Assembly: GCF_055900595.2 (NCBI RefSeq)
Contig: NZ_CM148325.1
Length of the DNA: 64,000 bases
Direction: 5' to 3' (one strand)
The notes under the pieces are model-generated. The model was not told the origin of the DNA. It searched no databases and saw only the letters and a list, made by a program, of their open reading frames with translations. This document shows, one piece after another, positions 11,676-54,780 of the stretch. Within the stretch, counting starts at the first letter, position 1; each line of letters begins with the position of its first letter. The position numbers and the translations under genes were made by a program.

Positions 11676-11858
11676 CGGATGCGGCGTAAACGCCTTATCC
11701 GACCTACGGTTTGCATCGTTGTAGGCCTGATAAGACGCGGCAAGCGTCGCATCAGGCAACGGCAGTCGGATGCGGCGCAGGCGCCTTATCCGACCTACGG
11801 TTTGCATCGTTGCAGGCCTGATAAGACGCGGCAAGCGTCGCATCAGGCATTACAAGGC
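11676..11858. repeat. Tandem pair of about 91-bp REP/BIME units
   Basis: gatgcggcg…cttatccgacctacggtttgcatcgttg[t/c]aggcctgataagacgcggcaagcgtcgcatcaggca occurs twice head-to-tail; ORF-track artefacts on both strands repeat the same peptides (MRRKRLIRPTVCIV…, MRRLPRLIRP…). Confidence 0.8.
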
Positions 11859-16375: not shown

Positions 16376-16380
16376 TTACA

Positions 16381-16411
16381 GGCGTCGCAGCAAGAATAGA
16401 GCTGCAACGCC
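16381..16411. other. Imperfect hairpin between convergent rsmI and agaI
   Basis: ggcgtcgcagc (16381-16391) / gctgcaacgcc (16401-16411), one mismatch; no flanking U-run, so not a canonical intrinsic terminator. Confidence 0.4.
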
Positions 16412-16424
16412 TACACCGGGCGAT

Positions 16425-17192
16425 TTAACGACGACACATCTCATCAATCATGCATGTGAAATAGTTATGCAGCCATAAAAACGAAGCCGGGATAGCGGTA
16501 GAGACTTTAGCCGTGAGAAAACGTTCTGTCGCATCCTGCTTTCCTTCGCCAGTTATCAGTAACAAAACTTCGCGGGCATTGAGAATATCCTTCAGGCCTA
16601 AAGTGATCCCACGAGTCACGGGGCGACCCGCGGTTTTTAACATCTCATGTTGTTGCGTTCTGGTATCAAGCTGGCTGATATGGCTTGCTGGTTGCAGACT
16701 TTCTCCCGGTTCGTTCAGCCCAAGATGGCCGTTTTTTCCCAATCCGAGAACGCATAAATCCAGACCGCCTTTGCGCGCAATCAGGTTCGTTACCCGTTCG
16801 CACTCTGTCTCATTTATCTCTTCAGAGCGAAAGCTGATGAGCTGGTCTTCACGTAGCCCCAGCGGCTGCACGATATGCTGTTGAAGGAAAGTTTCGCAGG
16901 TGCCAGGCATCGTTAATGGCAGATCCACCCATTCGTCGAGCTTCACGAAGGTCAGTTGGCTGACATCAACCTGCTGCTGGTGGATTTTTTCTACCAGATA
17001 ATGATACGTCAGTAATGGCGTGGCTCCGGTCGCCAGGCAAATCACGGCATCCGGTTTGCTACGGATCACGGCCAATAAATATTCGCTGGCACGTTCACTT
17101 AACGCCGTATAGTTTTCAACTTGTTGAAGGGTTTGCACAGGATGAAATTCCTTTAGTAAAGAGGCACCACCAGACGCAGTGCCTCGTTCCAT
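16425..17192 (-). CDS. agaI: Putative galactosamine-6-phosphate deaminase/isomerase AgaI (NagB family)
   Basis: Translation recognised as AgaI; start codon uncertain (ORF-track start used). Confidence 0.85.
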   Translation of the reverse strand: MERGTASGGASLLKEFHPVQTLQQVENYTALSERASEYLLAVIRSKPDAVICLATGATPLLTYHYLVEKIHQQQVDVSQLTFVKLDEWVDLPLTMPGTCETFLQQHIVQPLGLREDQLISFRSEEINETECERVTNLIARKGGLDLCVLGLGKNGHLGLNEPGESLQPASHISQLDTRTQQHEMLKTAGRPVTRGITLGLKDILNAREVLLLITGEGKQDATERFLTAKVSTAIPASFLWLHNYFTCMIDEMCRR

Positions 17193-17984
17193 TTACAAAA
17201 TGCCGAATGCGGAACAAACAATAGAGAGCACAAAAGTCACGCCGATTAACAGCACCGGATGCGCTTTTTTCACCCGCAGGAAGTAATACATCAGCAGGGT
17301 GTAGGCCATCGGTAAAATGTTCGGGAAGACTTTATCGAAGAAATCCTGCTGCAGCGCGACGCTGTGGGTACTGTCGATGGCAAACGATGTCACCACGTTA
17401 ATATGCACATACGAAGCGATCAGCCCGCCGATTACCGTGATCCCGAGGATGGTTGCCGAACGAGCAATCATCTGCGAGTTCTCTCGCACTTTATCGATCG
17501 CCTTCACGCCGACTGAATAACCGACGTGGGTCCAGCCGACGCGCAGGAAGAAGATAAGCAGGTAAACGGCGAAAAATAGAATCGGCCCCAGCAAGTTTCC
17601 CTGGCTGGCAAATGATGAGCAAATTCCCGCCATAATCGGCAATAAGGTAAACCAGAAAATCGCATCGCCAATCCCGGCGATTGGGCCAAACAGTGCCACT
17701 TTGAGGCCTTTAATGGTGTCGCGGTTTTCTCCTTTTTCTTCCATCGAAATTAATAACCCCATCAGGAATCCGACCAGATTCGGGTGGGTATTAATAAATT
17801 CGAGATTATCTTTCATCGCCGCGCTTAGGCCCGGTTTGTCGTCCTTATAAATCTTTTTCAGGATCGGCAACATCGCCCAGGTAAAACCTCCCGCCTGCAT
17901 CCTTTCGTAGTTAAAGCTCGCTTGCAGGAGTGACGAACGAAAGCCCAGACGGGTGATATCTTTTTTACTGATTTCAGATCCCAT
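17193..17984 (-). CDS. agaD: PTS mannose-family EIID component for N-acetylgalactosamine (263 aa)
   Basis: Translation recognised as AgaD; start at MGSEISKK (17984). Confidence 0.9.
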   Translation of the reverse strand: MGSEISKKDITRLGFRSSLLQASFNYERMQAGGFTWAMLPILKKIYKDDKPGLSAAMKDNLEFINTHPNLVGFLMGLLISMEEKGENRDTIKGLKVALFGPIAGIGDAIFWFTLLPIMAGICSSFASQGNLLGPILFFAVYLLIFFLRVGWTHVGYSVGVKAIDKVRENSQMIARSATILGITVIGGLIASYVHINVVTSFAIDSTHSVALQQDFFDKVFPNILPMAYTLLMYYFLRVKKAHPVLLIGVTFVLSIVCSAFGIL

Positions 17985-18777
17985 TGCTGTAGTCCTCTTC
18001 TTCATTTTTACTGGCAACGGGCTGCGGTTGCGCTTGCTGCCGGGATTTCGCATTGAAAAACTCATACACCGCAAAGCCTGCACCCAGTACGGCAACTGGC
18101 AACAGGTTGCTGACCTGGATGTAGCAAACAAACAAGAAACCGGCGATCAGGTAAGGGATATATTGCGCTTTGAACATCACGCGCAGCAGCAGGCCAAAAC
18201 CAACGGCAGGCAGAATGCCGCCAGCCACTTCAAAGCCGTGGGTCAGCCAGGCGGGCATCGCTTTCACCAGCGCCTGCATCGCCCCTTGCGCCAGGTAAGT
18301 ACAGAGGAAAGCAATCACCGCATACGCTGAAGCGACGATGAGCATCGTTGTCCAGTTAAGTCGGGAAAACGCTGCTGTATCCGCCTCTTTCGCACATTTA
18401 TCGGCTTTGGTCATAAATAATGAGAATGCCGAATAGAAGAACAGAATGACGTACTGCATTAACAAACTAAACGGCAGACCAAGGCCAATTGCCGTTTTGG
18501 CATCGACGCCAGTAGACCACGCAATGACGGTAGTCATCAGACCCGCCATAATTGGGTTGGGCGGCTGTACACCACCTGCGGGGGTTAATCCGGCGAAAGC
18601 CAGTTCTGTTAGGCCACCGGTAATTAAGCCAGTCTGAATATCACCGAGAATAGCACCTGTAAGGGTACAAACGATTATCGGGCGGAATAAAAATAAGGCT
18701 TCCAGCCAAAAATCAATCCCCAGAACGAAAACTAACGCCGCCAGGGATAATCCCTGAATTAGGGTTATTTCATGCAT
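17974..18777 (-). CDS. agaC: PTS mannose-family EIIC component for N-acetylgalactosamine (267 aa)
   Basis: Translation recognised as AgaC; overlaps agaD start by 11 nt. Confidence 0.9.
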   Translation of the reverse strand: MHEITLIQGLSLAALVFVLGIDFWLEALFLFRPIIVCTLTGAILGDIQTGLITGGLTELAFAGLTPAGGVQPPNPIMAGLMTTVIAWSTGVDAKTAIGLGLPFSLLMQYVILFFYSAFSLFMTKADKCAKEADTAAFSRLNWTTMLIVASAYAVIAFLCTYLAQGAMQALVKAMPAWLTHGFEVAGGILPAVGFGLLLRVMFKAQYIPYLIAGFLFVCYIQVSNLLPVAVLGAGFAVYEFFNAKSRQQAQPQPVASKNEEEDYSNGI

Positions 18778-18816
18778 TTTTATTACCTCAAACCAGTATT
18801 AAGGCGATTTTTGAAT

Positions 18817-19293
18817 TTAGTCAGGGATTTGTTCTTTTTGATCGCCGGGGACGTCCTGAATAAAAATATTCACACCGCGTTGTTTAATAAAGCGTAAGTC
18901 CGCGAGATCTTGATCGTCGATATAAACTTTACTGCTGATTTGCTTTTTACCTTCCGAGAAATGCATATTGCCGACGTTGACATCTTTCAGGTCAATGCCA
19001 CCTTCTATCAATTTACGTACCGTTTGCGGCGTACGGCAAATCAAGAAGATTTTCTGATGCGGTGCAGCTTTGCCGATGACGTTAATGGTTTTTTCGATAG
19101 TAAAGAAACGAATGCCAAAGCCGTAGGTTTCCGCGGTAATACCCATTAATTTTTGTTGAATATCATCGTTAGCGACAACATCATCCACGACTACCAGCAG
19201 ATTTGCACCGATGGTAGATGTCCAGGTCACACCAACCTGACCGTGAACCAGACGGTTATCAATACGGGTTAAGAGAATATTTGGACTGCTCAT
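18817..19293 (-). CDS. agaB: PTS mannose-family EIIB component (158 aa)
   Basis: Phosphorylatable His context RIDNRLVHGQV in translation. Confidence 0.9.
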   Translation of the reverse strand: MSSPNILLTRIDNRLVHGQVGVTWTSTIGANLLVVVDDVVANDDIQQKLMGITAETYGFGIRFFTIEKTINVIGKAAPHQKIFLICRTPQTVRKLIEGGIDLKDVNVGNMHFSEGKKQISSKVYIDDQDLADLRFIKQRGVNIFIQDVPGDQKEQIPD

Positions 19294-19459
19294 TGTGTAA
19301 TCCTCACCATAAAGTTGAATAATATAATTTTTTTAAATATATTATTGTTGCGATATTTTACTGATGTATTTATTAAGGTTTAGTTATCTCCTTTACCATT
19401 AAGGCACTCCCCGATATTAATCGGGAAGTACATTGGGATAAATCATAAAAAACTAATGA

Positions 19460-20332
<873 letters not shown>

Positions 20333-21487
20333 TTATGCCTGCCACGGATGAATGATTACGCCTTGCACCACACGGTTAACGGTGCCGCTGGCTGATGGGG
20401 TATCCGGCGTATTGCCCATGTGCAGCGACTGCATCAGTGCAAACGTCTGGGCGTACATCAGGAAGCAAAATGCCTGCTCAACGTCGATAAAGTGACGTGA
20501 CGGCGGCAGGATGATATGTGGACCGGCGGTAATAACGTCGTTGCCTTCCGCGGCGATGGCGATTACGCGCATTGCCTGGTTGTCACGGCGGAGTTCTGCC
20601 AGCAGATCAAGATCATACTGACGCGTATAGGGGTGGCTGGAGACAAACACCACCACCAGCGTTTCGTCATCGACCAGTGATTTAGGCCCATGACGGAATC
20701 CGGTCGGGGAATCATAAAAGGCCGCCAGTTTACCCGCCGTCAGTTCCAGTACTTTCAGCGCCGACTCGCGTGCTGCGCCCTGTAAGCCACCGCTGCCGAG
20801 ATAAACGATCCGTTTCCACGGTGCGTAACCAAACACACCTTCGCTGAAATCGCCCAGTGAGGTCAGGATCGCCTGGCAACGATCCGCTACGTCGCGGAAG
20901 GTCTGGCTATTGATTGTCTCAGGTGCGAAAACCGCGAGGCAGCTGGCCATCATAGTGGTAATGCTGCTTGTCATCGCAAAGCCGCGATCGTGCGTTTCTG
21001 CGGGCATCAGCAGGGCAAACGCGTTGTCGCTGTTGATCGCGTTTTGGTAAAGAGCGCCCGCTTCGTTGCAGGTGATCGGCAGGTGATAGCATTCCGGTAC
21101 AAACTGATTCGCCAGTTCCACGGCGGCGACGCTTTCCGGGCTGTTGCCAGATCGACCGAAGGAGATCAACAGCAGTGGATGCGCTGGGTTCAGGTATTCC
21201 ATTGGATTGGTGACCAGATCGGTGGTCGGTACGGCGCTGACGTTTTTGCCGGTATGGCTGGCAAGCCACGGCGCGATGATGTCACCGATAAATGCCGAGG
21301 TTCCGGCTCCGGTCAGAATGATCCGCAGATTCTCTTTGCGCAGTAACGGTTCAAGGAAGTTATTGAGAGCTGTACGTAACGCGTCGATGTTGGTGAGTGA
21401 ACGGATCCATGCGCGAGGCTGATGGCGGATCTCTTCTTCAGTCCATGTGCCGGTGGTGGCGGCCGCTGGGGTGTAATTTTCTGGCAT
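20333..21487 (-). CDS. agaS: SIS-domain sugar isomerase/deaminase AgaS (384 aa)
   Basis: Translation recognised as AgaS. Confidence 0.9.
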   Translation of the reverse strand: MPENYTPAAATTGTWTEEEIRHQPRAWIRSLTNIDALRTALNNFLEPLLRKENLRIILTGAGTSAFIGDIIAPWLASHTGKNVSAVPTTDLVTNPMEYLNPAHPLLLISFGRSGNSPESVAAVELANQFVPECYHLPITCNEAGALYQNAINSDNAFALLMPAETHDRGFAMTSSITTMMASCLAVFAPETINSQTFRDVADRCQAILTSLGDFSEGVFGYAPWKRIVYLGSGGLQGAARESALKVLELTAGKLAAFYDSPTGFRHGPKSLVDDETLVVVFVSSHPYTRQYDLDLLAELRRDNQAMRVIAIAAEGNDVITAGPHIILPPSRHFIDVEQAFCFLMYAQTFALMQSLHMGNTPDTPSASGTVNRVVQGVIIHPWQA

Positions 21488-21837
21488 AACTCAATCCTTA
21501 GTCTGATGAACTTGACTTCCGGCATTGCAGGTTTCGCTTGCCTTTCGTTTCATTTCACTTGGTGATTCGTTTCGTTGATTAAAATCTATAGAAAAGAAAT
21601 CGAAAGTTCAATGGAGAAAAAAGAAATAAAACGAAATTTGTGATCGTTGAAAGAAAAGACAAGGGAAGATTAAAGGATTGCGTGATGACGTCGCTATGTG
21701 TACCGATTGCTGGAAGCGGCGTACCGTAGAGCGGATAAGACGCGCCAGCGTCGCATTCGACACCACTGCACAGATTAAAACGAAAGAAAAAGAAAGGCCT
21801 TACGGGGGAAGTGAAGGCCCAATAAAGGAGCAAACCA
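21488..21837. promoter_or_regulatory. agaS promoter region with AgaR-type operator repeats and a REP remnant
   Basis: Multiple CTTTCGTTTC / AACGAAA motifs (cctttcgtttcatttcac; gaaatcgaaagttc; aaataaaacgaaattt) consistent with DeoR-type AgaR operators; REP-like ggataagacgcgccagcgtcgcat near 21733-21760. Confidence 0.5.
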
Positions 21838-22971
21838 TCAAAACGAAGCTAATTGACCCTGAATCCAGATTTGTTGCACATACAGTCCGCTATTCAGCGC
21901 AACGACGCTGGCGCGTTTGCCCGGTTTAAGTGATCCCAGAACACCATCAACACCCAGCATTCGCGCCGGATGCAGCGATGCCATATGGATGGCTTCCGCA
22001 GGCGTTACGCCCGTCAACTCGACCATGTTGCGCACTGCCGCATCGACAGACAGCGTACTGCCCGCCAGCCCACCGGACGCGGTACGGACAACGCCACCGC
22101 GCATCTGCACTTCTTCACCACATAACGTATATTGACCATCCGGCATCCCGGCTGCCTGCATCGCATCAGTTATCAGCACTATTCTCTCTTTCGCACAGCA
22201 ACAACACAGCGACATCGCCGCCGGATGTACATGATGCCCATCGGCTATCAATTCCAGCCAGGCGCGCTTGTCCGTTAAACCCGCGCCAACCATTCCCGGT
22301 TCGCGGTGATGTAATCCTGTCATCCCGTTATAGCAATGCACCAGGCCGTCTGCGCCAGCATCAAATACGGCGCGGGTTTGTTGCCAGGTTGCTGCGCTAT
22401 GTCCCAGCATTACCCGCACGTTCTGCTGTTTAAGATGACGAATGGCTTGTAACGCGCCCGTTTTTTCCGGTGCCAGCGCCACCACGCGCAAGGTATGCCG
22501 TGAAACAGCAATCAATTGATCCAGCTCGGCAATTTCCAGCTCGCGAAACAGCTCCGGCGGATGTGCGCCTTTATTCTGCGGCGTGAAGTACGGTCCTTCG
22601 AGATAACTCCCCAGCACTTGCGCACCAGGTCCACCGCGCTGGCAGCGTAGAGCAATACGTTCCAGCGCCGCATGAATGGTATTAAGCGGCGCGGTTACGG
22701 TAGTCGGCAACCAACTGCCGACACCTTCCCGTGCCTTGTGCATTGCCAGCTTGTCGAGCACATCCGGCGCGTCATCCATAACATCAACGCCCGCACCACC
22801 GTGTACATGGGTATCGATATAAGCGGGGCAGAGCAGTTCCGCATCGCGTTCAGTCACGCCCACTGGAATCGGTTCGATTGCTGCAATTACACCGTCAGCA
22901 ATATGCAACTGATGATCATCAAGCCAGCCCTCCTCAGTCAGCAGTCTTCTGGCGCGCAGAACGTGTGTCAT
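21838..22971 (-). CDS. agaA: N-acetylgalactosamine-6-phosphate deacetylase AgaA, full length (377 aa)
   Basis: NagA-family metal-binding motif (YIDTHVHGGAG) in translation; start at MTHVLRARR (22971). Confidence 0.85.
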   Translation of the reverse strand: MTHVLRARRLLTEEGWLDDHQLHIADGVIAAIEPIPVGVTERDAELLCPAYIDTHVHGGAGVDVMDDAPDVLDKLAMHKAREGVGSWLPTTVTAPLNTIHAALERIALRCQRGGPGAQVLGSYLEGPYFTPQNKGAHPPELFRELEIAELDQLIAVSRHTLRVVALAPEKTGALQAIRHLKQQNVRVMLGHSAATWQQTRAVFDAGADGLVHCYNGMTGLHHREPGMVGAGLTDKRAWLELIADGHHVHPAAMSLCCCCAKERIVLITDAMQAAGMPDGQYTLCGEEVQMRGGVVRTASGGLAGSTLSVDAAVRNMVELTGVTPAEAIHMASLHPARMLGVDGVLGSLKPGKRASVVALNSGLYVQQIWIQGQLASF

Positions 22972-23402
22972 ATTCCTTCCTCGACCGGACATTCTTCATG
23001 GCAGCGGCCTAACTCGTCTACCAGACTGGTCAGCCCACGGTGTCCACACTCCAGCGCCTGCACACGGAATTCTTCACCGCTTAACCCTTCGCGCTCCAGC
23101 ACCATTTCCAGTAACAGTTGCAAATTGGTGCCGGTGATCACTTCATAGCCCGGTTTTTGCATCGCCAGCGTTGAAGCCACGCGAAACGGTGTGCCGCCCA
23201 GCAAATCTGTCAGAAAAACAATGCCGTCTTCACAATCCAGTTGGGCGATGGCTTCTTCAAGCTGCGATGTAAGCAGCGCAGTGCTTGAGGTTTCCGGAAA
23301 ATCAATGGCGATAAACTGCGACTGCTCGCCGAGGATTTGCTTCATTGCTTTTTCCATGCCGCTGGCAAATCCGCCATGCCCTGTCAAAATAATACTTAAC
23401 AT
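22968..23402 (-). CDS. agaF: PTS mannose-family EIIA component (144 aa)
   Basis: Translation recognised as AgaF; overlaps agaA start. Confidence 0.85.
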   Translation of the reverse strand: MLSIILTGHGGFASGMEKAMKQILGEQSQFIAIDFPETSSTALLTSQLEEAIAQLDCEDGIVFLTDLLGGTPFRVASTLAMQKPGYEVITGTNLQLLLEMVLEREGLSGEEFRVQALECGHRGLTSLVDELGRCHEECPVEEGI

Positions 23403-23419
23403 CTAATACCTCATTGTAT

Positions 23420-24304
23420 TTAAAGGAAATGACAGAATTTACCGACGATGCCAAGAACCACGGTAACCGCAATCAGGCGCAGCGGACTCCAGCCGCGGCG
23501 TACCAGCCAGAACATGGTCAGGGTGTAGACCAGCGGTAAGAAGGCAGGCATCAGTTTGTCGATAACGTCAGCCTGCAGCTTAACCACTGCGTCGCCCGCC
23601 GTGATTTCCAGCGTGGTGCTTAAACGAACATAGGTTGCCACCAGCGCGCCGATTACCGTCATCCCAACGATTGACGCAGCATGGCCGACTTTTTTGGTAT
23701 TCGCTTTAATGAGTGGAATCGCCGCCACGCCCATGCGGTAAGCATAATGCGCCAGACCAAAACGCAGCCCCAGGTGTACCACGTTGAACAGCACAATAAA
23801 GACGACTGCGCCAAGAATAGAGCCTTGCAATGCCAGACTGGCTCCAATCCCGCCACAAATCGGCAGTAACGTTAGCCAGAACATGGCATCGCCAATCCCG
23901 CCGAGCGGCGCACCGACGGCAATTTTGGTGCTCTGAATACTGTTAACGTCCTGCTTAGAACGCTCCATCGCAAGGATAATGCCGATAACAAACGTCACCA
24001 GAAACGGATGGGTATTGAAGAAACCCATATGTCCCTTCATGGCGCGCGCCAGGTCGCGTTTATTAGTGTGGATCTTTTTCAGAGCAGGCAGCAGACCGTA
24101 CAACCAGCCGGAAGCCTGCATACGTTCGTAGTTAAAAGACGCTTGTAACAGCATGGAACGCCAGGCGACGCGGTTGATATCTTTTTTCGTCAGCTCTGCG
24201 CCAATGCTCTGATCTTCATACACGTTTTCATTGACGCCTGTCAGCAGTGTCTCTTCATTTTCGCTGACGTTCGGCAGGGTGGTTTGATTAGATGCCATCT
24301 TCAA
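23420..24304 (-). CDS. agaE: PTS mannose-family EIID component (galactosamine)
   Basis: Paralog of AgaD in translation. Confidence 0.85.
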   Translation of the reverse strand: MKMASNQTTLPNVSENEETLLTGVNENVYEDQSIGAELTKKDINRVAWRSMLLQASFNYERMQASGWLYGLLPALKKIHTNKRDLARAMKGHMGFFNTHPFLVTFVIGIILAMERSKQDVNSIQSTKIAVGAPLGGIGDAMFWLTLLPICGGIGASLALQGSILGAVVFIVLFNVVHLGLRFGLAHYAYRMGVAAIPLIKANTKKVGHAASIVGMTVIGALVATYVRLSTTLEITAGDAVVKLQADVIDKLMPAFLPLVYTLTMFWLVRRGWSPLRLIAVTVVLGIVGKFCHFL

Positions 24305-25067
24305 ATTCCTCTTTCTGTGCCGCAGGTTGAGTCGGTTCAGGAGATTTACGCAGCAAGTCGATCAGCGCCATCGCCAGCGCGGCGGCAGCAATAGCCAGCA
24401 CCGGTAACTTGAGCCAGGCTGCGGCAACAAAGCCCAGGATGAAGTAGGGGATGTAGACGTTTTTCATCATGATTTTCAGCAGCACGGCAAAACCGATTGC
24501 TGGCATGATGCCACCCGCGACGCCGAGGCCGTCGATTAATCGTTGCGGCAGGACATCAATGATGGTTTTGGCATGTTCTGCGCCGAAGTAGATAGGCAGG
24601 AAAGCGCAGAGAAAATAGAACGTGCCGAGTGCCAACAGTGCCAGATAGTTCACGCGTTCAATGCCGCGTGTATCGGCGTTCTCCGCCATCCGGTCGCAGC
24701 GGGACATTACGCCAGACATCACCGAGAACAGGAAGGTAATCCCCATCTGTACTGCGACAGCGAAAGGTACGGCGACACCGACCGCGACATCCGGTTTCAC
24801 GCCAGTAGTAATGGCAAACGCCGTGCCGACGATAGTTCCGATAATCACGTTAGGCGGCTGTGCGCCCGCCAGTGGTGCCAGCCCCATCCACACCAGTTCC
24901 AGCGTACCGCCGGTTAAAATACCGGTATGCAGATCGCCAAGCACCAACCCAACTAACGGGCCGAGGACCACCGGGCGGTGCATATGGGTCAAGCCGTTAA
25001 ACATATCCAGGCCAGCGATAAAGGCGATAATGCCCAACGCAAATGCCTGCAACAGACTGATTTCCAT
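24288..25067 (-). CDS. agaW: PTS mannose-family EIIC component, full length (259 aa)
   Basis: Paralog of AgaC in translation; overlaps agaE start by 17 nt. Confidence 0.85.
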   Translation of the reverse strand: MEISLLQAFALGIIAFIAGLDMFNGLTHMHRPVVLGPLVGLVLGDLHTGILTGGTLELVWMGLAPLAGAQPPNVIIGTIVGTAFAITTGVKPDVAVGVAVPFAVAVQMGITFLFSVMSGVMSRCDRMAENADTRGIERVNYLALLALGTFYFLCAFLPIYFGAEHAKTIIDVLPQRLIDGLGVAGGIMPAIGFAVLLKIMMKNVYIPYFILGFVAAAWLKLPVLAIAAAALAMALIDLLRKSPEPTQPAAQKEEFEDGI

Positions 25068-25077
25068 AATGAATCCC

Positions 25078-25551
25078 TCAAAGTAATTTAAAGAGGTCCA
25101 CAGCAGGTTCTGTCGGAACGCCCTGAACGAAGCATTCCACCCCAGCGGCTTTCAGGTCGTTAAATGCCGCGATATCGCTCGCATCCACAGAAACCGTTTT
25201 GGCAATTTGCTGCTTGCCATTGGCATAGTGCATGTTGCCAACGTTAATGCGACTCACCGGGACCCCACCTTTAACCAGCATCAGGAAATCGGCAGGTGTT
25301 TTACAAACCAGCAGAATTTTCTGCCGATCGGCGGCGCGGTGGATGTTGTCGATCACTTTTTGCAGCGTCCAGAAACGTACGGCGATCCCTTCAGCCAGTA
25401 CCATTTCCATCAGGTTTTGTTGTACCGGATCTTCGGCAACCTCATCATTGGCTACCAGCACCAGATTTGCCCCCGCAAATCCGACCCACTGAACGCCGAC
25501 CTGACCGTGAATCAAGCGTTCATCAATCCGGCTTAAAACAATATTTGGCAT
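25078..25551 (-). CDS. agaV: PTS mannose-family EIIB component (157 aa)
   Basis: Paralog of AgaB; start at MPNIVLSRIDER (25551) with AGAGGA SD. Confidence 0.85.
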   Translation of the reverse strand: MPNIVLSRIDERLIHGQVGVQWVGFAGANLVLVANDEVAEDPVQQNLMEMVLAEGIAVRFWTLQKVIDNIHRAADRQKILLVCKTPADFLMLVKGGVPVSRINVGNMHYANGKQQIAKTVSVDASDIAAFNDLKAAGVECFVQGVPTEPAVDLFKLL

Positions 25552-25573
25552 AGCGTGTTCCTCTTTGTTTTGC

Positions 25574-26854
25574 TTATTGGCCTTCACAGGCTGTGTGGTA
25601 CTGCGCCAGGATGTCCTGAATATGGTTGATAATGAGTTCCCGTGGCGTTGGCTGCAGCTCGCCGGAGCGAACTTTCACGTATTGCAGCGGCAGGTACTGA
25701 CTGATGAGCGGCAGCGGAATTGGTGCATCCGCCAGGTTACGAACCAGATGGGCGAAAGCGTCATCAATCTGGCTGTCCGGCCAGTAATAGCGCACGCGAT
25801 CCGAGTAGCTATAACCACGCGCCAGACGACGCGCGTTGCCATCACCGTGGTAGTGGCTTTGCCAGTATTCCGGGCGGTCGAGCATCACGTTTTCCAGCAC
25901 CTGACGCAGACCGGAACAGGCTTTTGCTGGCACCAGTTCTTCTTCAATCGCCGCCAGAGAGAACAGAGCTTCACGCAGGGCGAAGGTGAGCGCCGGACCA
26001 ACTTTCAGAATGGCAAAGTGGTCAATCACCAGCTGGCGCAGCGATTGCGGCGTTTGGTAATCGGTAGAGTGCGCTTCGAAAATCAGCGTTTCGTAGTTTT
26101 CGACCATCTGGCTTAAGGCGGTCGCTTTAGCTGGCTGATAATCAATAACGTTGGTGTGATCGAATTCGACGCCGGGTTGTACCACCAGAGCAATGATGCG
26201 TGGCCAGATGGCATTCAGACCTTGCTTTTCAAAGGCGTGACGATGGGCTTCCAGCGTGGCGCGGGCGGCATCCGGCGTAGTGACCGCCAGCTCGCTTAAG
26301 GTTTCATGCGCGCCGCCAGGTACCGGCACTTCGGTACCAATGACATACACCAGATCGGCTTCGCCAAAGTGTTCACGGCAGGTTTCTTCCGCGACTTTAG
26401 CCAGTCGGGCGGCGCGTTCAGCCACGATGTCATCGGTTAAGGGAACCGGATCGTCCTGACAGGACATGCTGCAATCAAGGTGAATTTTTTTGAATCCTGC
26501 CGCCACGTAGCTTTTAATCAAATCATCGGCATTTGCCATCGCCTGAGCTGCAGGCAGGTTTTGCCAGCGGTTTGGCCCCAGATGATCGCCACCCAGAATC
26601 AACGCGTCTTGTGGGAAATTCAATGAGTCGGCGAGCTGACAAACAAAGCCGCGAAAATCGGCGGGTGTCATTCCGGTATAACCACCGAACTGGTCCACCT
26701 GATTGGATGTCGCTTCAATCAGTAACGGTGTTTGGTTTACACTGGCGTAGCGGATTGCAGCTTCCAGCACCAGCGGGTGTGCGGAACAAACGGCATAAAT
26801 CCCATTTGTTTTGCCCTCTTTGTGCTGCCTCACCATTTCTGTCAGATGTTTCAC
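25574..26854 (-). CDS. kbaZ: Tagatose-bisphosphate aldolase non-catalytic subunit KbaZ (426 aa)
   Basis: Translation recognised as KbaZ/AgaZ; GTG start at 26854 preceded by GGAGAGG; ORF track extends further upstream. Confidence 0.8.
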
Positions 26855-27102
26855 TTTCCTCTCCAGTTCAGATTGCTGCGATATTAATCTTTCGTTTTGT
26901 TTCAGTTGATACTGCGTCATGGTGAGATAAAAATAAAACGAAAGATAATAGTTTTCTGATCTGATTCACAAAAGAAACATAATGAAAGTCACTGAAACGA
27001 GAGTAGCTTGCGTCAATGGGCAAGGTGGGCTTGCATTTGCTCAATAGAAAGGCGTTAATAGGCAAAACGAAATGAAACGAAAGTTTTACGAAAGGACTTA
27101 CT
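26855..27102. promoter_or_regulatory. Divergent kbaZ / agaR promoter region with AgaR-type operator repeats
   Basis: Repeated AACGAAA / CGAAAG motifs (aaacgaaagataatag; gcaaaacgaaatgaaacgaaagttttacgaaagg). Confidence 0.5.
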
Positions 27103-27912
27103 ATGAGTAATACCGACGCTTCAGGCGAGAAGCGAGTGACAGGCACCAGCGAGCGACGAGAACAAATCATTCAGCGCCTGCGACAGCAAGGGAGTGTGCA
27201 GGTTAACGATCTGTCGGCATTGTATGGCGTATCTACTGTGACGATCCGCAACGATCTGGCGTTTCTGGAAAAGCAGGGGATCGCTGTGCGGGCCTATGGC
27301 GGCGCGTTGATCTGCGATAGCACGACGCCGTCAGTCGAGCCATCAGTGGAAGATAAAAGCGCGCTGAACACTGCGATGAAACGCAGCGTTGCGAAAGCTG
27401 CCGTTGAGTTGATTCAGCCAGGTCATCGGGTGATCCTCGATTCCGGGACCACCACGTTTGAGATTGCTCGTCTGATGCGCAAGCACACTGACGTAATTGC
27501 GATGACCAATGGTATGAACGTAGCCAATGCACTGCTGGAAGCAGAAGGCGTTGAACTTCTTATGACCGGCGGGCATCTGCGGCGTCAGTCGCAATCTTTT
27601 TACGGCGATCAGGCTGAACAATCGCTACAAAATTACCACTTCGATATGCTGTTTCTTGGCGTAGATGCTATTGATCTGGAGCGCGGCGTCAGCACGCATA
27701 ATGAAGATGAAGCCCGTTTAAACCGTCGGATGTGCGAAGTTGCGGAACGGATCATCGTGGTCACCGATTCCAGTAAGTTCAACCGTTCCAGTTTACATAA
27801 GATCATTGATACTCAACGTATCGACATGATCATTGTTGATGAAGGCATTCCTGCGGATAGTCTGGAAGGACTGCGAAAGGCTGGGGTTGAAGTGATTCTG
27901 GTCGGGGAGTGA
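27103..27912 (+). CDS. agaR: DeoR-family transcriptional repressor AgaR (269 aa)
   Basis: Translation recognised as AgaR. Confidence 0.9.
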
Positions 27913-27966
27913 GAAATGGTGCCCGCTGGTCAACACCAATGCGTTCGGCGGGCATTGTGAACACCA

Positions 27967-28431
27967 TCAATGGTTTTCTTCTGTCTCTTGGGTGAGGCTT
28001 TCCCAGTCGGCAGGAGGATGTCCTCTTTTTAACATTTTACTGAATACGGTATAGGCATCTGTTTTTTTACCGTAGGTGCGCAGCGTGTTTTCATCGTTCA
28101 TCCATCCCAGAATGATGACTTTCTCTTTTTCACTGTAACGAAAGAAGAGACGATAGCGACCAGCACCAAATTTTACCCGTGACCAGTCTTTATTTTTCCC
28201 AGAGCCTAACGACTTGCCATGACGGAATGCCGGTGATGATGGATTGACCGTGATATGCTCCTCAATCACTTTATGGACCACCGCCAATAACTTTGTGGCA
28301 GCTTTTCTCTGATAATTTTCAGGATCTTTTCCCTTTAATGCCTCGACTTCGGCAACTAAAGCATCGTAGGTTTCCTGAAAACAGGGATGAGCATATAGCG
28401 CCCAACCATTAACCCTTTGTGGAAAATCCAT
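27967..28431 (-). CDS. yhaV: Toxin YhaV, ribosome-dependent mRNA interferase (154 aa)
   Basis: Translation recognised as YhaV; ATG overlaps the prlF stop (TAATG). Confidence 0.9.
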   Translation of the reverse strand: MDFPQRVNGWALYAHPCFQETYDALVAEVEALKGKDPENYQRKAATKLLAVVHKVIEEHITVNPSSPAFRHGKSLGSGKNKDWSRVKFGAGRYRLFFRYSEKEKVIILGWMNDENTLRTYGKKTDAYTVFSKMLKRGHPPADWESLTQETEENH

Positions 28432-28766
28432 TATTCGTCGTCGCCAATCTCATCGTCAATGTTGACGTCCATGCCAGCGACAAGTTTCTTTCCTTGTTGA
28501 ATGTCGAATGGACGAGTTTTTTGCGGGTTGTTCTGGATATCTGCATCCAGAAAACGCAAAAATGCATTCATAGTATGATCCTCCTGTTCATCTCCCAGTC
28601 GGCACATAAATACTTGCCCACCAGGCAGAATTTCGTAATGAATGCTGTCCAGGCCTGGCTTCAGTTTTAAGGCCTCACGCACTGGCGCGGGGATAGTTGT
28701 TTGTCCGCGTATCGTGACCTTTGATTCAGTGGTCAGTACAGCGTTAGAGCGAGCATTAGCGGGCAT
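28431..28766 (-). CDS. prlF: Antitoxin PrlF/SohA (AbrB-fold; 111 aa)
   Basis: Translation recognised as PrlF; acidic C-terminus (DDEIGDDE). Confidence 0.9.
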   Translation of the reverse strand: MPANARSNAVLTTESKVTIRGQTTIPAPVREALKLKPGLDSIHYEILPGGQVFMCRLGDEQEDHTMNAFLRFLDADIQNNPQKTRPFDIQQGKKLVAGMDVNIDDEIGDDE

Positions 28767-28821
28767 TATTTACTGTCCTTTTACAGCCTGTTTTCTGCTC
28801 AAATTATAAGCTTGAACTAAG

Positions 28822-28837
28822 GTAATGCAAATGCATT
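28822..28837. promoter_or_regulatory. Candidate prlF-yhaV operator palindrome
   Basis: Perfect inverted repeat TAATGCA-AA-TGCATTA about 55-70 bp upstream of the prlF ATG; TA modules are typically autoregulated at such palindromes. Confidence 0.4.
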
Positions 28838-28914
28838 ATTAATGGATGTGTGGACTTTAAACAATAAAAACATGGCACTAAGGCCATGTTTTGCGAGGGA
28901 CGTTCCAAAAGAAA

Positions 28915-30486
28915 TCAGGTCACCGGTGCCGGGTTAAACACCGCCAGCTGGTTATGCAGTCCCCATTGATCTGAGAAGGTTTTCTTCTTCCCGCTGGCGA
29001 CGTCGAGAATAAAGTGGAACAGCTTCCAGCCCACTTCTTCTATGGTTTCTTCGCCGGTGGCGATGGTGCCTGCGTTGATATCCATTAAGTCAAACCAACG
29101 GTTTGCCAGTTCGGTGCGGGTCGCCATTTTAATGACGGGTACTACCATCAGGCCATATGGCGTGCCGCGACCGGTCGTAAACACTTGCACGGTAATCCCT
29201 GATGCCACCTGTTGCGTGCCACAGACAAAATCGCTGGCTGGCGTCGCGGCGTAAATTAATCCGCGTTTAGTCGGGCGTTGACCGGGCGATAGCACTTCAA
29301 CAATTGCGCTTTTACCCGATTTAGCAATGGAGCCGAGAGCCTTCTCCACTACGTTTGCCAGACCGCCTTTCTTGTTGCCCGGAGAAGGGTTGGCGCTGCG
29401 GTCGGTTTTTCCCATATTCAGATAGTTATCGTACCACTCCATCTCTTCCAGCAGACGCTTGCCGACCTCTTCGTTCACTGCGCGCGGCGTCAGCAGATGG
29501 ATCGCGTCACGCACTTCTGTGACTTCCGAGAACATCACTGTTGCACCGCAGCGCACCAGTAGATCAGACGCATACCCAACCGCTGGATTTGCCGTTACGC
29601 CAGAAAACGCATCGCTGCCACCGCACTGCATGCCGACAACCAGTTCTGAAGCCGGACAGGTTTCTCGCTGACGTTGATTCAGTTTTTGTATATGGCGTTC
29701 GGCGACCTGCAAAATATCCTCGACCATGGACTGAAAACCGACATGCTTTTCATCCTGCAAACTGACAATGCTGGCGCTTTCTACTGGAATAGCTTGCACA
29801 TCATCCGTTCCAGTCAGCAGGCGCTCAGGCTGCAACTTTTCACAACCCAGACCAATCACCATTACTTCGCCGCCAAAGTTAGGGTTCAGCGAAATATTGT
29901 GAATGGTACGGATAGGCACAACTGCCGCCGGTGCGTTAATCGCCACGCCACAACCGTACAAATGATTCAGCCCCACCACGCCATCGACGTTCGGGTATTT
30001 CGGTAGCAGATCGCGTTCAATGATTTTTACTACGTAGTCCACCACGCCTGCCACACAGTGGACGCTGGTGGTGATGCCGAGCAGGTTTTTGGTGCCCACG
30101 CTGCCATCAGCATTGCGATAGCCCTCAAAGGTGTATCCTTCCAGCGGCGGTAAGGGTTCCGGGACTTTGGTTGCCAGTGGCAGTGTGTGTAACGGCGGCG
30201 CTTCCGGTAGTACAACCATTGATTCGTCGATCCAGCTTCCGCGTGGGATTGCGCGCACGGCGTAACCAATCACTTCACCATAACGAATAATTTCACCATT
30301 AGCCGGAATGTCCAGCAATGCGACTTTATGCCCCTGGGGAATATGTTCAATTAATTCCAGCCCATCCGGAAAACGCGTTCCTGCTTTCAGGCCATTATCA
30401 TTAACAATAATTGCCACATTATCTGTGTCATGAACTTTTATATAAAACGCAGTTGGCGTTTCTTGTCTGATTTCGATGTTGGCCAT
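28915..30486 (-). CDS. garD: Galactarate dehydratase GarD (523 aa)
   Basis: Translation recognised as GarD. Confidence 0.95.
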
Positions 30487-35553: not shown

Positions 35554-35564
35554 ATTTTAACGAA

Positions 35565-35596
35565 AACCCGCCAGCGTAAACTGGCGGGTTTTTGCT
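35565..35596 (+). terminator. Rho-independent terminator of rnpB
   Basis: cccgccag-cgtaaa-ctggcggg hairpin followed by TTTTT. Confidence 0.7.
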
Positions 35597-35825
35597 TTTG
35601 AGGAGGGTGGTCGGAAAGATGAACGTCTTATCTGGCCTACAAAACAACGAAAATTCAATATATTGCACAGAGGCAATGTAGGCCTGATAAGCGTAGCGCC
35701 TCAGGCAATTTTGTGTTTATCATCAGTCTCGAATCTGCTTCGGCAAGCTTTTACTTTTGGTGCAGACGGAAAGATGAACGAATATCTAAGCTATTAATAA
35801 TAGACTTTGCAAGAAATCATTACAT

Positions 35826-36995
35826 TTATATTTCATTTAAAAGATCGTAATCATACGTATATTCTTTGCTAATAAAACGACACTCGTTGAAGCTAAATTC
35901 ATCGTCTGAAAAGGAATTGTCAACAGAATCTCTTTCTTCCTCCAGGCTATTATCTGAAAGCAAGTCGTTTGAGTTAGTATAATCTAGGTTGTAATCGACA
36001 GTATAATTAATTTCTGGATTGGTTTGGTAATCATTTTTTTTGACGCAATCATATTCCTCAATAATTTTGTCGATATAATCATATGCTTTTTCTAATGAGA
36101 AGTTTTTCATCTCTGGTAATTTAACTTTGCTCAAATAATTATTAATTTTTGAGGAGTTTTTATATATGCTTTTTGTTAATTCTTTTTCTAATTTGTCTGT
36201 TATATTTGCTGTTGGTATGGATTTTATAATCGCATATCTCATGATTTTTAATTGATCTTCGGTTAAATCTCCAAGCTCATTTAAACAACTTTCGACAAAG
36301 TTGATTTTTTCTCTGGAATAATCATCGCTGATACTTGTTAACGCTGGGGTGATTTTTAATAAAGAATTCCATGAGATAGTACCATTGTGTGTCGAACGCA
36401 TAAAATTTATATTGTACATATTGGTTTTAGTAAACTTTGTTGCAAACAATGTAAAGGGATCTAAAGTCGCGTAAGCCATATGTTTATTTGAAAAATCATA
36501 ACCAGTTAAATCGACGTTATGCAAGTCCAGATAGGATAAATCTATTACGTCGCCTGCTCCAGAGCTAAAGATTACATTTAATCTTCTGATTTCATTGTAA
36601 ATTCCCTCTAATGAACAATTTGTGTTCATGATGTCTGCTGAAATTTTTATGTTATTTAACGGTTCACAAATTATAAGCTTGCAGGTATTGTCTGATCGTT
36701 GCGTTATTTGGGCATTATAACCTAAAAAGTCTATGCGAAGAGACGAGTTATTATAAAGTATTACATTTTTTAAGTATGCTAATTCTTGTTGAAAATCACC
36801 ATCGATAATACATGTTCCACCAGGTTGCAACGCGCAGATTAACGTGAGCATTTGATTAGAAGTCTGTTTTAGTTTTACTACACCTGGTGCTAGTGCTTTG
36901 AGGTCATTTATTATGGGGGTTTCAGGAATGTCATTCATTTTTATACGTACTAAATCATTACCTAAGTCATTACCTATTGATGAAACCGGGAACAT
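35826..36995 (-). CDS. yhaC: Uncharacterised protein YhaC, AT-rich gene (389 aa here)
   Basis: Long ORF with Asn/Ile/Tyr/Lys/Asp-rich composition and low GC; pentapeptide-repeat-like stretch (DLSYLDLHNVDLTGYDFS); acidic Ser/Asp/Glu-rich C-terminus. Confidence 0.8.
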   Translation of the reverse strand: MFPVSSIGNDLGNDLVRIKMNDIPETPIINDLKALAPGVVKLKQTSNQMLTLICALQPGGTCIIDGDFQQELAYLKNVILYNNSSLRIDFLGYNAQITQRSDNTCKLIICEPLNNIKISADIMNTNCSLEGIYNEIRRLNVIFSSGAGDVIDLSYLDLHNVDLTGYDFSNKHMAYATLDPFTLFATKFTKTNMYNINFMRSTHNGTISWNSLLKITPALTSISDDYSREKINFVESCLNELGDLTEDQLKIMRYAIIKSIPTANITDKLEKELTKSIYKNSSKINNYLSKVKLPEMKNFSLEKAYDYIDKIIEEYDCVKKNDYQTNPEINYTVDYNLDYTNSNDLLSDNSLEEERDSVDNSFSDDEFSFNECRFISKEYTYDYDLLNEI

Positions 36996-37016
36996 TATTT
37001 TATCCTTTTTAAATAA

Positions 37017-37556
37017 TCAATGAGAATCATGATTAAAATGATCTGGTGAAAAAAAGAGAATTTGCCAACAATCTGAAACATTGTCAGTTTTATTAAAATG
37101 ATTAAATTCCGTTAAGATAACTTCTTTTTGCGTGAACTTTGCGCAAAACTTAAAAATTGTCTCCTTGATACACTCCAGATCTTTTCTATTGATGGCTGAA
37201 CAAGTACATTTTTCGCCAAAAGGTGAAAATGTGCCTACATCTAAAGTTTGTATTATATAATCATCATTTACTCCTGTAGAAATATCTATGATGAATGGAC
37301 TTCTATTTTCCGGTTGGATTCGGATCATTACAGAAGAAACATCACCTTTATAGACATTCAATGCAGTAATCGCAGATAATATTCTCCGCAATTCATTGCT
37401 TATGCTGTAAATTTCATTAACGTCATTTGTCGATATAATCTCGGCAAATTTTATTTTTACCTTCCAATAATCAATGTTTCTATTATAAGTGTTAACAGTT
37501 TCGTACATTGGTGGTATCGAAGGGGGTAAAAAATGTGAAACCGAATAACCTTTCAT
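37017..37556 (-). CDS. yhaB: Uncharacterised protein YhaB (179 aa)
   Basis: AT-rich ORF 21 bp downstream of yhaC on the same strand; start placed at MKGYSVSHF (37556); ORF track extends to 37586. Confidence 0.75.
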   Translation of the reverse strand: MKGYSVSHFLPPSIPPMYETVNTYNRNIDYWKVKIKFAEIISTNDVNEIYSISNELRRILSAITALNVYKGDVSSVMIRIQPENRSPFIIDISTGVNDDYIIQTLDVGTFSPFGEKCTCSAINRKDLECIKETIFKFCAKFTQKEVILTEFNHFNKTDNVSDCWQILFFSPDHFNHDSH

Positions 37557-37794
37557 TGATGCCTGCCTTGTCATCATGACAAACAATAATCAATGCTTAT
37601 TTTCCTTGCACGGTTCGCTCACAACTATCAAAAAACGCTCAATTACCTGGCATTACAGTCAACGAAGCAAAATTCTGTGGTCTACAACGATGTAAAGCAC
37701 AACGAAAATCCTCCTTGTTCTCTTATTCTGATCGTATAGCGATGAACATCAATTATTCGTTTTGTGATCATCAACACAAAATGCTATTTAGTAA

Positions 37795-54396: not shown

Positions 54397-54780
54397 AAAC
54401 GAGGAGCGTTTCTCCTCGTTTGAGACTGATGGCAAACGCAAAACTGCCTGATGCGCTATGCTTATCAGGCCTACGAGGTTTCTGCAATGTATTGAATTTG
54501 CATGTTTTTGTAGGCCGGATAAGGCGTTCACGCCGCATCCGGCATGAACAACGTGCACTTTGTCAACAATCTGAAACGAGGAGCGTTTCTCCTCGTTTGA
54601 GACTGATGGCAAACGCAAAACTGCCTGATGCGCTATGCTTATCAGGCCTACGAGGTTTCTGCAACGTATTGAATTTGCATGTTTTTGTAGGCCGGACAAG
54701 GCGTTCACGCCGCATCCGGCATGAACAACGCGCACTTTGTCAACAATCTGAAACGAGGAGTGTTCCCCCTCGTTTTTTAT
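54397..54780. repeat. Tandem array (about 2.2 copies) of a 177-bp composite unit: perfect hairpin plus REP pair
   Basis: Units begin at 54397, 54574 and 54751 (partial); each carries aaacgaggagcgtttctcctcgttt followed by REP units (gcctgatgcgctatgcttatcaggcctac…gtaggccggataaggcgttcacgccgcatccggca); the two full copies differ at 3 positions. Confidence 0.8.

Follow-up and report, generated by a model that had tools for sequence, protein, structure and literature searches.

The interval at positions 16425–27912 of the window (the whole 64,000-nucleotide stretch of DNA analyzed here) very probably carries a complete aga/gam regulon of the Escherichia coli chromosome, in the ancestral state. The cluster is an already known system; a 13-gene aga/gam cluster of E. 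coli was reportedly described by Reizer in 1996 and Brinkkotter in 2000.

Gene content and layout

The interval starts at the stop codon of agaI and ends with that of agaR at 27912. agaR lies on the plus strand, and kbaZ-agaV-agaW-agaE-agaF-agaA and agaS-kbaY-agaB-agaC-agaD-agaI both lie on the minus strand, so that the gene order given in a preliminary description of this DNA runs from right to left in the window. The content and order are those of the E. coli aga/gam regulon, with agaR divergent from kbaZ-agaVWEFA, followed by agaS-kbaY-agaBCDI. Annotation of the flanks placed the cluster between rsmI/lpoA and yhaV-prlF-garD, a synteny shared with K-12, E. coli C, UTI89 and EBJ003. Translation of the annotated frames revealed that all 13 are open and full length, without internal stops or frameshifts. 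All 13 products scored above the NCBIfam curated cut-offs, mostly over the full profile length; 11 passed Aga/Kba-specific equivalog models, while AgaA passed the nagA equivalog only and AgaS the agaS_fam subfamily model only. The preliminary description had claimed 13 uninterrupted genes, with agaE and agaF present and agaW and agaA full length; the open frames and NCBIfam scores agree with this, and translation of agaW, agaE, agaF and agaA revealed none of the frameshifts or premature stops that would have counted against it. All 13 aga/gam genes are named in the RefSeq annotation of strain E200086, which is 100% identical. The window does not include nagA or the genes for the general PTS proteins and the tagatose-6-P kinase.

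The transporter genes, all on the minus strand, show the architecture of the mannose-family PTS, with two IIB/IIC/IID sets and one IIA. The N-acetylgalactosamine set comprises agaV (EIIB; 25078–25551; 157 aa; NF008508, 320 bits, cut-off 180, 1–157 of 157), full-length agaW (EIIC; 24288–25067; 259 aa; NF040757, 411 bits, cut-off 300, whole profile) and agaE (EIID; 23420–24298; 292 aa; NF040760, 618 bits, cut-off 500, 1–292 of 292), the last two overlapping by 11 bp. AgaW is identical in E. coli C, and AgaE differs there by one residue. The galactosamine set comprises agaB (EIIB; 18817–19293; 158 aa; NF007288, 281 bits, cut-off 180), agaC (EIIC; 17974–18777; 267 aa; NF007289, 408 bits, cut-off 300) and agaD (EIID; 17193–17984; 263 aa; NF007359, 457 bits, cut-off 400), whose product is identical in E. 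coli C. The EIIA common to both transporters is encoded by agaF (22968–23402; 144 aa; NF040761, 218 bits, cut-off 130, 1–144 of 144). AgaF differs from its E. coli C counterpart by a single change, C86Y, five residues away from the site at which a substitution costs O157:H7 its Aga use. From established knowledge of ManX, we take the phosphorylation sites to be His9 of AgaF, in TGHGG, and His15 of AgaV (IHGQV motif) and His17 of AgaB, both in R-L-[IV]-H-G-Q-V.

The enzyme genes, also on the minus strand, include kbaZ (agaZ), which encodes the non-catalytic subunit of tagatose-1,6-bisphosphate aldolase from a GTG start (25574–26854; 426 aa; NF012002 KbaZ equivalog, 897 bits, cut-off 707, full length), and kbaY (agaY), which encodes the class II catalytic subunit (19460–20320; 286 aa; NF009375, 666 bits, cut-off 542, 1–286 of 286). 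The N-acetylgalactosamine-6-phosphate deacetylase gene agaA is full length (21838–22971; 377 aa; TIGR00221 nagA equivalog, 284 bits, cut-off 226, 5–379 of 380), and its product has the same 377 aa in EDL933 and E. coli C (PMC3668189). agaS (20333–21487; 384 aa; TIGR02815 agaS_fam, 632 bits, cut-off 529) is assigned the galactosamine-6-phosphate deaminase/isomerase role from the literature (PMC3668189). The NagB-like product of agaI (16425–17192; 255 aa; NF007291, 468 bits, cut-off 271) is annotated as galactosamine-6-phosphate isomerase, but its role in the pathway is doubtful; AgaI is reported to be dispensable (PMC3668189). The pathway implied by the preliminary description has to be corrected, the literature giving the deaminase step to AgaS rather than AgaI.

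Secondary hits link the products to the families of two paralogous systems: the ManXYZ mannose PTS shares the mannose/sorbose-type IIA, IIB, IIC and IID families, and the GatYZ galactitol aldolase shares the class II tagatose-bisphosphate aldolase and Z subunit families. However, the window's proteins did not reach the curated cut-offs when scored with the ManX, ManY, ManZ and GatZ models, and they exceeded the cut-offs set for the Aga and Kba models.

Control regions and operator-like repeats

agaR (27103–27912, plus strand) encodes the DeoR-family repressor of the regulon in an open frame of 269 aa (NF040755, 465 bits, cut-off 260). The AgaR equivalog matches residues 13–267 and PRK09802 residues 1–269 of 269; the protein has the same accession as in E. 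coli C, WP_000072187.1, with no amino acid difference. DeoR-family repressors have an N-terminal HTH and a C-terminal sugar-phosphate-binding domain, and AgaR fits this layout at full length. Operator-like sites were scored against a 24-nt AgaR consensus that we take to be that of Ray and Larson 2004, and all mismatch counts rest on it.

The divergent kbaZ/agaR control region (26855–27102; 248 bp, 37% GC) contains four copies each of AACGAAA and CTTTCG, and 245 of its 248 columns (98.8%) are the same in the window, K-12 and E. coli C, against about 4% difference in the flanking genes. A site at 26886–26909 (plus strand; three mismatches) adjoins the kbaZ start and forms an arm of inverted repeats I1 and I2, with the partner arm of I1 at 26924–26947 (minus strand; four mismatches). 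Another lies at 26968–26991 (minus strand; one mismatch), and a group with three TTTCRTTT cores is located just upstream of agaR at 27058–27086 (minus strand), where 27063–27086 has no mismatch and the overlapping 27058–27081 has four, suggesting autoregulation. A CRP-like sequence, TCTGATCTGATTCACA, at 26955–26970 has one mismatch to TGTGA-N6-TCACA and may function as a CRP site. Each of these sites is invariant in the three genomes. Besides the agaS control region, the agaA/agaS gap (21488–21837) includes a REP-like element and the point where the first operon ends. Operator-like sites lie there at 21539–21562 (no mismatch), 21586–21609 (five), 21617–21640 (one) and 21776–21799 (four); in this gap the operator columns are 94.8% conserved, compared with 77.6% for the remaining columns.

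Analysis of the distribution of these motifs revealed strong clustering. Of the 21 AACGAAA copies in the window 8, and of its 15 TTTCRTTT copies 9, lie in the two aga intergenic gaps, which account for 0.93% of its length; an unbiased repeat search recovered a six-copy family, AAATAAAACGAAAG, confined to the same two gaps. All five sites with three or fewer mismatches in the 64-kb window fall inside the two control regions, and both perfect consensus matches sit just upstream of agaS and agaR. The site sequences are the same as in K-12. The AACGAAA/CTTTCG repeats that the preliminary description had placed before kbaZ, agaS and agaR are thus real, far above chance and conserved, and would be expected to bind AgaR. 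A simple sigma-70 scan found no convincing promoters.

A hairpin directly after the agaA stop (21777–21820, minus strand) has a 9-bp stem followed by the U-rich tract UUUCUUUUUCUUUCGUUUU (dG −10.9 kcal/mol, z −1.5), is invariant in three genomes and may serve as a terminator. Another lies between the convergent rsmI and agaI (16379–16413; 13-bp stem, dG −25.6 kcal/mol, z −4.8 on the agaI strand), with no U tract after it. An invariant 12-bp hairpin at 19404–19431 (dG −20.4 kcal/mol, z −3.6) belongs to the AT-rich kbaY/agaB spacer (19294–19459, minus strand; 166 bp), which shows 98–99% identity in five divergent genomes, against 2–6% difference in the flanking genes, and contains no AgaR motif; a comparison with Rfam gave no match. 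The spacer is a rather doubtful candidate for a cis-acting element of the agaS-kbaY-agaBCDI operon that has not been described before, and could be an RNA stabiliser, a processing site or an internal promoter region. In that case the genes of the galactosamine transporter would be set to a level separate from that of agaS-kbaY, which is needed for both sugars.

Predicted use of both sugars

The pathway and its regulation have been documented (PMC3668189, PMC9628945, PMC4694137), and the steps given here are carried over by homology from published work on E. coli C, K-12 and O157:H7. N-acetylgalactosamine (GalNAc) would be imported and phosphorylated by a mannose-family PTS formed by AgaV (IIB), AgaW (IIC) and AgaE (IID), and galactosamine (GalN) imported via AgaB (IIB), AgaC (IIC) and AgaD (IID), with AgaF as the single IIA serving both. 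AgaA (or NagA) would deacetylate GalNAc-6-P to GalN-6-P, which AgaS would deaminate and isomerise to tagatose-6-P. A kinase whose gene lies elsewhere would phosphorylate this product, and the KbaY/KbaZ aldolase would then split tagatose-1,6-bisphosphate into triose phosphates. The DeoR-type AgaR, acting on CTTTCG/AACGAAA-type operator arrays at the kbaZ, agaS and agaR promoters, would silence both operons and agaR itself until an amino sugar is present.

We compared the locus with that of E. coli C (ATCC 8739, NC_010468.1 601335–612809), the experimentally studied Aga+ Gam+ reference. The two agree in the order and orientation of all 13 genes, in the control regions and, except for agaI, in gene length. 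AgaR, AgaW and AgaD are identical and the other proteins 96.8–99.7% identical; over the whole set there are 0–12 amino acid changes per protein (AgaA 12, AgaS 10, KbaZ 10), and the DNA is about 3.9% divergent, with 93.8–98.6% identity per gene. AgaI has 251 aa in E. coli C, compared with 255 in the window, and its last eight or so residues are unlike those of both E. coli C and K-12. Between its agaI and rsmI genes E. coli C also carries the yraHIJK fimbrial operon, which the window lacks at that place. The pooled pN/pS was 0.044 (dN/dS about 0.04), indicating continuing purifying selection; the value for AgaA, with its 12 differences, was a dN/dS of 0.07.

O157:H7 EDL933 and Sakai contain a full-length cluster including agaWEFA, as in the window, but their agaC is interrupted by an amber at codon 8 and their agaI by one at codon 72, and the spinach-outbreak isolates also carry AgaF G91S. 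In O157:H7, Aga use was lost via AgaF G91S and Gam use via the one agaC amber codon (PMC3668189). None of these known inactivating lesions, nor the K-12 deletion, occurs in the window: codon 8 of agaC and codon 72 of agaI both encode Gln, and AgaF retains Gly91. Given the intact genes, the absent lesions, the low dN/dS and the conserved operator-like repeats, it is a well-founded prediction that the strain can grow on GalNAc as well as on GalN.

Alternatively, the locus could be intact in sequence and yet non-functional for one or both sugars, if a missense change specific to the lineage or some defect elsewhere in the genome blocked the pathway. The O157:H7 point mutations show that small changes suffice and that sequence intactness is no guarantee of phenotype; one missense difference from E. 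coli C could be harmful, with the AgaF of the window carrying C86Y and its AgaS a cluster of five changes at residues 315–320. However, the dN/dS values are low for agaF (0.016) and agaS (0.063) as well as overall, the residues hit in O157:H7 are wild type, and every product clears the equivalog cut-offs by a wide margin, which makes such a loss of function quite unlikely.

The K-12 deletion

K-12 MG1655 has the same agaR, kbaZ, agaV, agaS, kbaY and agaBCDI at the same chromosomal position, with the same operators, but alignment revealed a 2305-bp deletion relative to the window at an imperfect 10-bp repeat. The blastn match stops at window position 22396 and restarts at 24692, the two matches sharing 10 bp, GGTCGCAGCG, in K-12; the copies of the junction repeat in the window are GGTTGCTGCG at 22387–22396 and GGTCGCAGCG at 24692–24701. 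These break points and the repeat define the missing segment as 22397–24691. The deletion removes agaE and agaF whole and cuts off half of agaW at its 3′ end and half of agaA at its 5′ end. In the RefSeq K-12 record the annotated IIC gene (agaW′) lacks its C-terminal part and the deacetylase gene (′agaA) its N-terminal part, with no gene between the two. The pairwise alignment thus maps directly the deletion that the preliminary description had attributed to K-12, namely loss of agaE and agaF with truncation of agaW and agaA. E. coli C, with all 13 genes, has the Aga+ Gam+ phenotype, whereas the deletion makes K-12 Aga− Gam− (PMC3668189, PMC9628945).

A search with 2.1 kb inside the segment as query (window 22600–24700), counting a match over at least 80% of the query length as presence, found the segment in 4930 of 5426 complete E. 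coli genomes (~91%); the K-12 junction occurs in just 371 of the complete genomes. With the intact cluster in about nine-tenths of E. coli genomes, the state seen here is ordinary and K-12 is the exception. That the agaW-agaE-agaF-agaA segment is instead an island gained by the present strain, as its label OI#126 (‘O-island’) in EDL933-versus-K-12 comparisons might suggest, is refuted to the point of being negligible by the truncated agaW and agaA remnants abutting at the 10-bp repeat in K-12, a deletion signature, by the predominance of the segment over the K-12 junction, and by a divergence of the segment from other E. coli equal to that of its flanks.

Discussion

The practical value of a complete aga/gam locus in this strain is small, and no open question is advanced by it. 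GalNAc and GalN are components of gut mucin. The aga/gam locus is induced in vivo in EHEC. The strain belongs to a rare, comparatively deep-branching E. coli lineage from human stool and has kept the full mucin-sugar pathway that was lost in laboratory K-12; metabolic models based on K-12 would therefore under-predict its abilities.

Gene content and layout of the aga/gam locus

The ORF listing and frame translation revealed 13 uninterrupted genes at 16425–27912 of the window, with no internal stop in any of the 13 frames; agaR lies on the plus strand and the other 12 genes on the minus strand. Families were assigned with NCBIfam models at their curated cut-offs (bits and cut-off given in that order). 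The repressor gene agaR (27103–27912; 465, 260) is followed leftward by kbaZ, also called agaZ (25574–26854; 897, 707), agaV (25078–25551; 320, 180), agaW (24288–25067; 411, 300), agaE (23420–24298; 618, 500), agaF (22968–23402; 218, 130) and agaA (21838–22971; 284 on the nagA equivalog, 226), and then by agaS (20333–21487; 632, 529), kbaY (19460–20320; 666, 542), agaB (18817–19293; 281, 180), agaC (17974–18777; 408, 300), agaD (17193–17984; 457, 400) and agaI (16425–17192; 468, 271). All 13 products thus exceeded the cut-off of their own model, most over the full profile length, and the paralogous Man and Gat models gave only below-cut-off scores for proteins of the locus. Overlaps of 11 bp (agaW/agaE and agaC/agaD) and 4 bp (agaF/agaA), together with the abutting agaD and agaI, form a compact arrangement typical of co-translated operons.

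E. coli strain E200086 (from human stool, Mali) matches this stretch at 100% identity, and its RefSeq annotation carries the same 13 gene names at the same positions; the remainder of the window is ordinary E. coli chromosome from nlpI to uxaA. The preliminary description of a complete 13-gene locus, with agaE and agaF present and agaW and agaA full length, was therefore borne out by the open frames, the family scores and the RefSeq names. It is a textbook locus, already known, and is present here in the complete form in which it usually occurs.

The K-12 deletion and the frequency of the intact state

Alignment of K-12 MG1655 with the window by blastn covered 16468–22396 and 24692–29500 and nothing in between. 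On the K-12 side the two alignments share 10 bp, GGTCGCAGCG, and in the window the break points carry an imperfect repeat, GGTTGCTGCG at 22387–22396 and GGTCGCAGCG at 24692–24701; recombination at this short imperfect repeat therefore removed 2305 bp from K-12. The K-12 record retains as remnants an IIC gene without its C-terminus and a deacetylase gene without its N-terminus. The loss mapped here agrees with the published 2.3-kb deletion that renders K-12 Aga- Gam- (PMC3668189; PMC9628945). The deletion named in the preliminary description proved correct, with the pairwise alignment confirming the difference.

A 2.1-kb query from inside the deleted segment, counted as present when at least 80% of it was matched, was found in 4930 of the 5426 complete E. 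coli genomes. The contiguous K-12 junction was found in 371 genomes; among sampled matches of the junction query, the two halves align at separate places. An intact locus is normal for E. coli, K-12 and its relatives being the exception.

Operator-like repeats in the two intergenic gaps

The kbaZ/agaR (26855–27102) and agaA/agaS (21488–21837) gaps together make up 598 bp, or 0.93% of the window, and contain 8 of its 21 copies of AACGAAA and 9 of its 15 copies of TTTCRTTT; the operator-like repeats noted earlier in front of kbaZ, agaS and agaR are thus real. A blind repeat search yielded a six-copy family, AAATAAAACGAAAG, confined to these two gaps, and inverted repeats that pair sites within the kbaZ/agaR region. 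Ray and Larson reportedly described, in 2004, a 24-nt AgaR operator consensus, WRMMTTTCRTTTYRTTTYNYTTKK, and we scanned the window with this sequence. It was matched perfectly before agaS (21539–21562) and before agaR (27063–27086), with one mismatch each at 21617–21640 and 26968–26991, and more weakly at 26886–26909, 26924–26947, 21776–21799 and 21586–21609. At five or fewer mismatches, 10 of 18 matches fell in the 598 bp, compared with about 4 in total in shuffled windows.

In a three-genome alignment, 245 of 248 columns of the kbaZ/agaR region were invariant, and operator columns of the agaA/agaS gap were 94.8% conserved versus 77.6% elsewhere in that gap. Direct binding and repression of agaZ (kbaZ), agaS and its own gene by AgaR have been reported (PMC4694137), as has derepression of the PTS genes upon loss of agaR (PMC9628945). 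A CRP-like site with one mismatch lies at 26955–26970. The promoter/terminator scan returned fewer promoter-like sites than in shuffled sequence and none at the expected kbaZ and agaS promoters; it carries no information on these promoters, which are weak and probably depend on CRP. Rfam at the gathering threshold produced no match in the locus.

The agaA/agaS gap also holds a single REP-like element (21700–21760; ...GATAAGACGCGCCAGCGTCGCATTCGACA...). The gap is least conserved in this part, whose arrangement in K-12 is different. A perfect inverted repeat of 14 nt between this element (21740–21753) and agaA coding sequence (21903–21916) looked non-random and was rejected, as it is conserved in neither K-12 nor E. 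coli C.

Between kbaY and agaB lies an AT-rich spacer of 166 bp (19294–19459); comparison with K-12, E. coli C, UTI89 and EBJ003 gave 98–99% identity here, against differences of 2–6% in the flanking genes. An invariant 12-bp hairpin in the spacer (19404–19431, minus strand; dG -20.4 kcal/mol, z -3.6) lacks a U tract, there is no AgaR motif, and Rfam at E<=1 gave only a meaningless match in the spacer. Exceptional conservation was ruled out, since the garR/garK, tdcA/tdcB and ubiU/ubiT spacers are equally conserved.

Divergence and surroundings of the locus

The segment from mtr to agaR (2939–27912) showed 95.3–96.3% identity to phylogroup A and B2 strains and EBJ003, which are 97.2–98% identical among themselves, and the aga locus was at least 99% identical in only eight complete genomes. 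Seven genomes nearly identical to E200086 are E400634, E600003, E500002, 100117, 100248, Z0117EC0005 and AST85. The gar genes to its right are less divergent (97–97.6% identity). Horizontal replacement specific to aga, prompted by the only ~96% identity to other E. coli, was rejected because divergence is as great or greater in the left flank, from mtr to rsmI; the divergence is not specific to the locus. These identities and the few close genomes suggest a rare, comparatively deep-branching Escherichia lineage of mosaic make-up, which may be a cryptic clade.

At the left end, the window (16376–16468) lacks the 5.5-kb yraHIJK fimbrial operon that separates agaI from rsmI in K-12 and E. coli C, and 1821 of 5426 genomes share the direct rsmI/agaI junction. 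The junction break is located within the 3'-terminal part of agaI, with the result that the protein ends in ...NYFTCMIDEMCRR in the window versus ...SNFICLINT in E. coli C. A strong hairpin (16379–16413; dG -25.6, z -4.8) lies between the convergent rsmI and agaI. On the other side, agaR is followed by the yhaV-prlF toxin-antitoxin pair in the window as well as in K-12, E. coli C and EBJ003; the pair is missing from UTI89 (26101–26977 of its own locus coordinates), in which the agaR annotation is 15 bp longer.

Divergence in the window peaks by a wide margin at 35554–37794, where two hypothetical genes in the yhaB/yhaC position and their flanks share only 79–89% identity with K-12. Between yqjG and yqjF (54418–54754), a ~160-bp element with 88% identity to K-12 sequence adjoining rnpB is inserted as two tandem copies. 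Rfam matches were ES036 (CssrF) at 54467–54507 and naRNA4 (CssrE) at 11724–11795.

Predicted function

The 13-gene cluster of E. coli C ATCC 8739 has been shown to give growth on both N-acetylgalactosamine and galactosamine (PMC3668189). Gene-by-gene comparison with this locus gave nucleotide identities of 93.8–98.6%; at the amino acid level, AgaR, AgaW and AgaD do not differ, AgaC, KbaY, AgaF and AgaE differ at one position each, AgaB and AgaV at three each, AgaI at six, AgaS and KbaZ at ten each and AgaA at 12. Pooled pN/pS was 0.044, which indicates strong purifying selection on every gene. Translation revealed none of the lesions that abolish use in O157:H7 (AgaF G91S, agaC codon 8 amber and agaI codon 72 amber; PMC3668189), the window encoding G91, Q8 and Q72 instead, and the IIA and IIB proteins keep their conserved histidines. 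Because the deaminase/isomerase is AgaS, the intactness of agaI is hardly informative on phenotype, and NagA is able to replace AgaA (PMC3668189); nagA, the general PTS proteins and tagatose-6-P kinase are encoded outside the window. From the low divergence from E. coli C, the purifying selection, the conserved histidines and the lack of known lesions, we infer that the window strain would be Aga+ Gam+, a prediction that is well supported.
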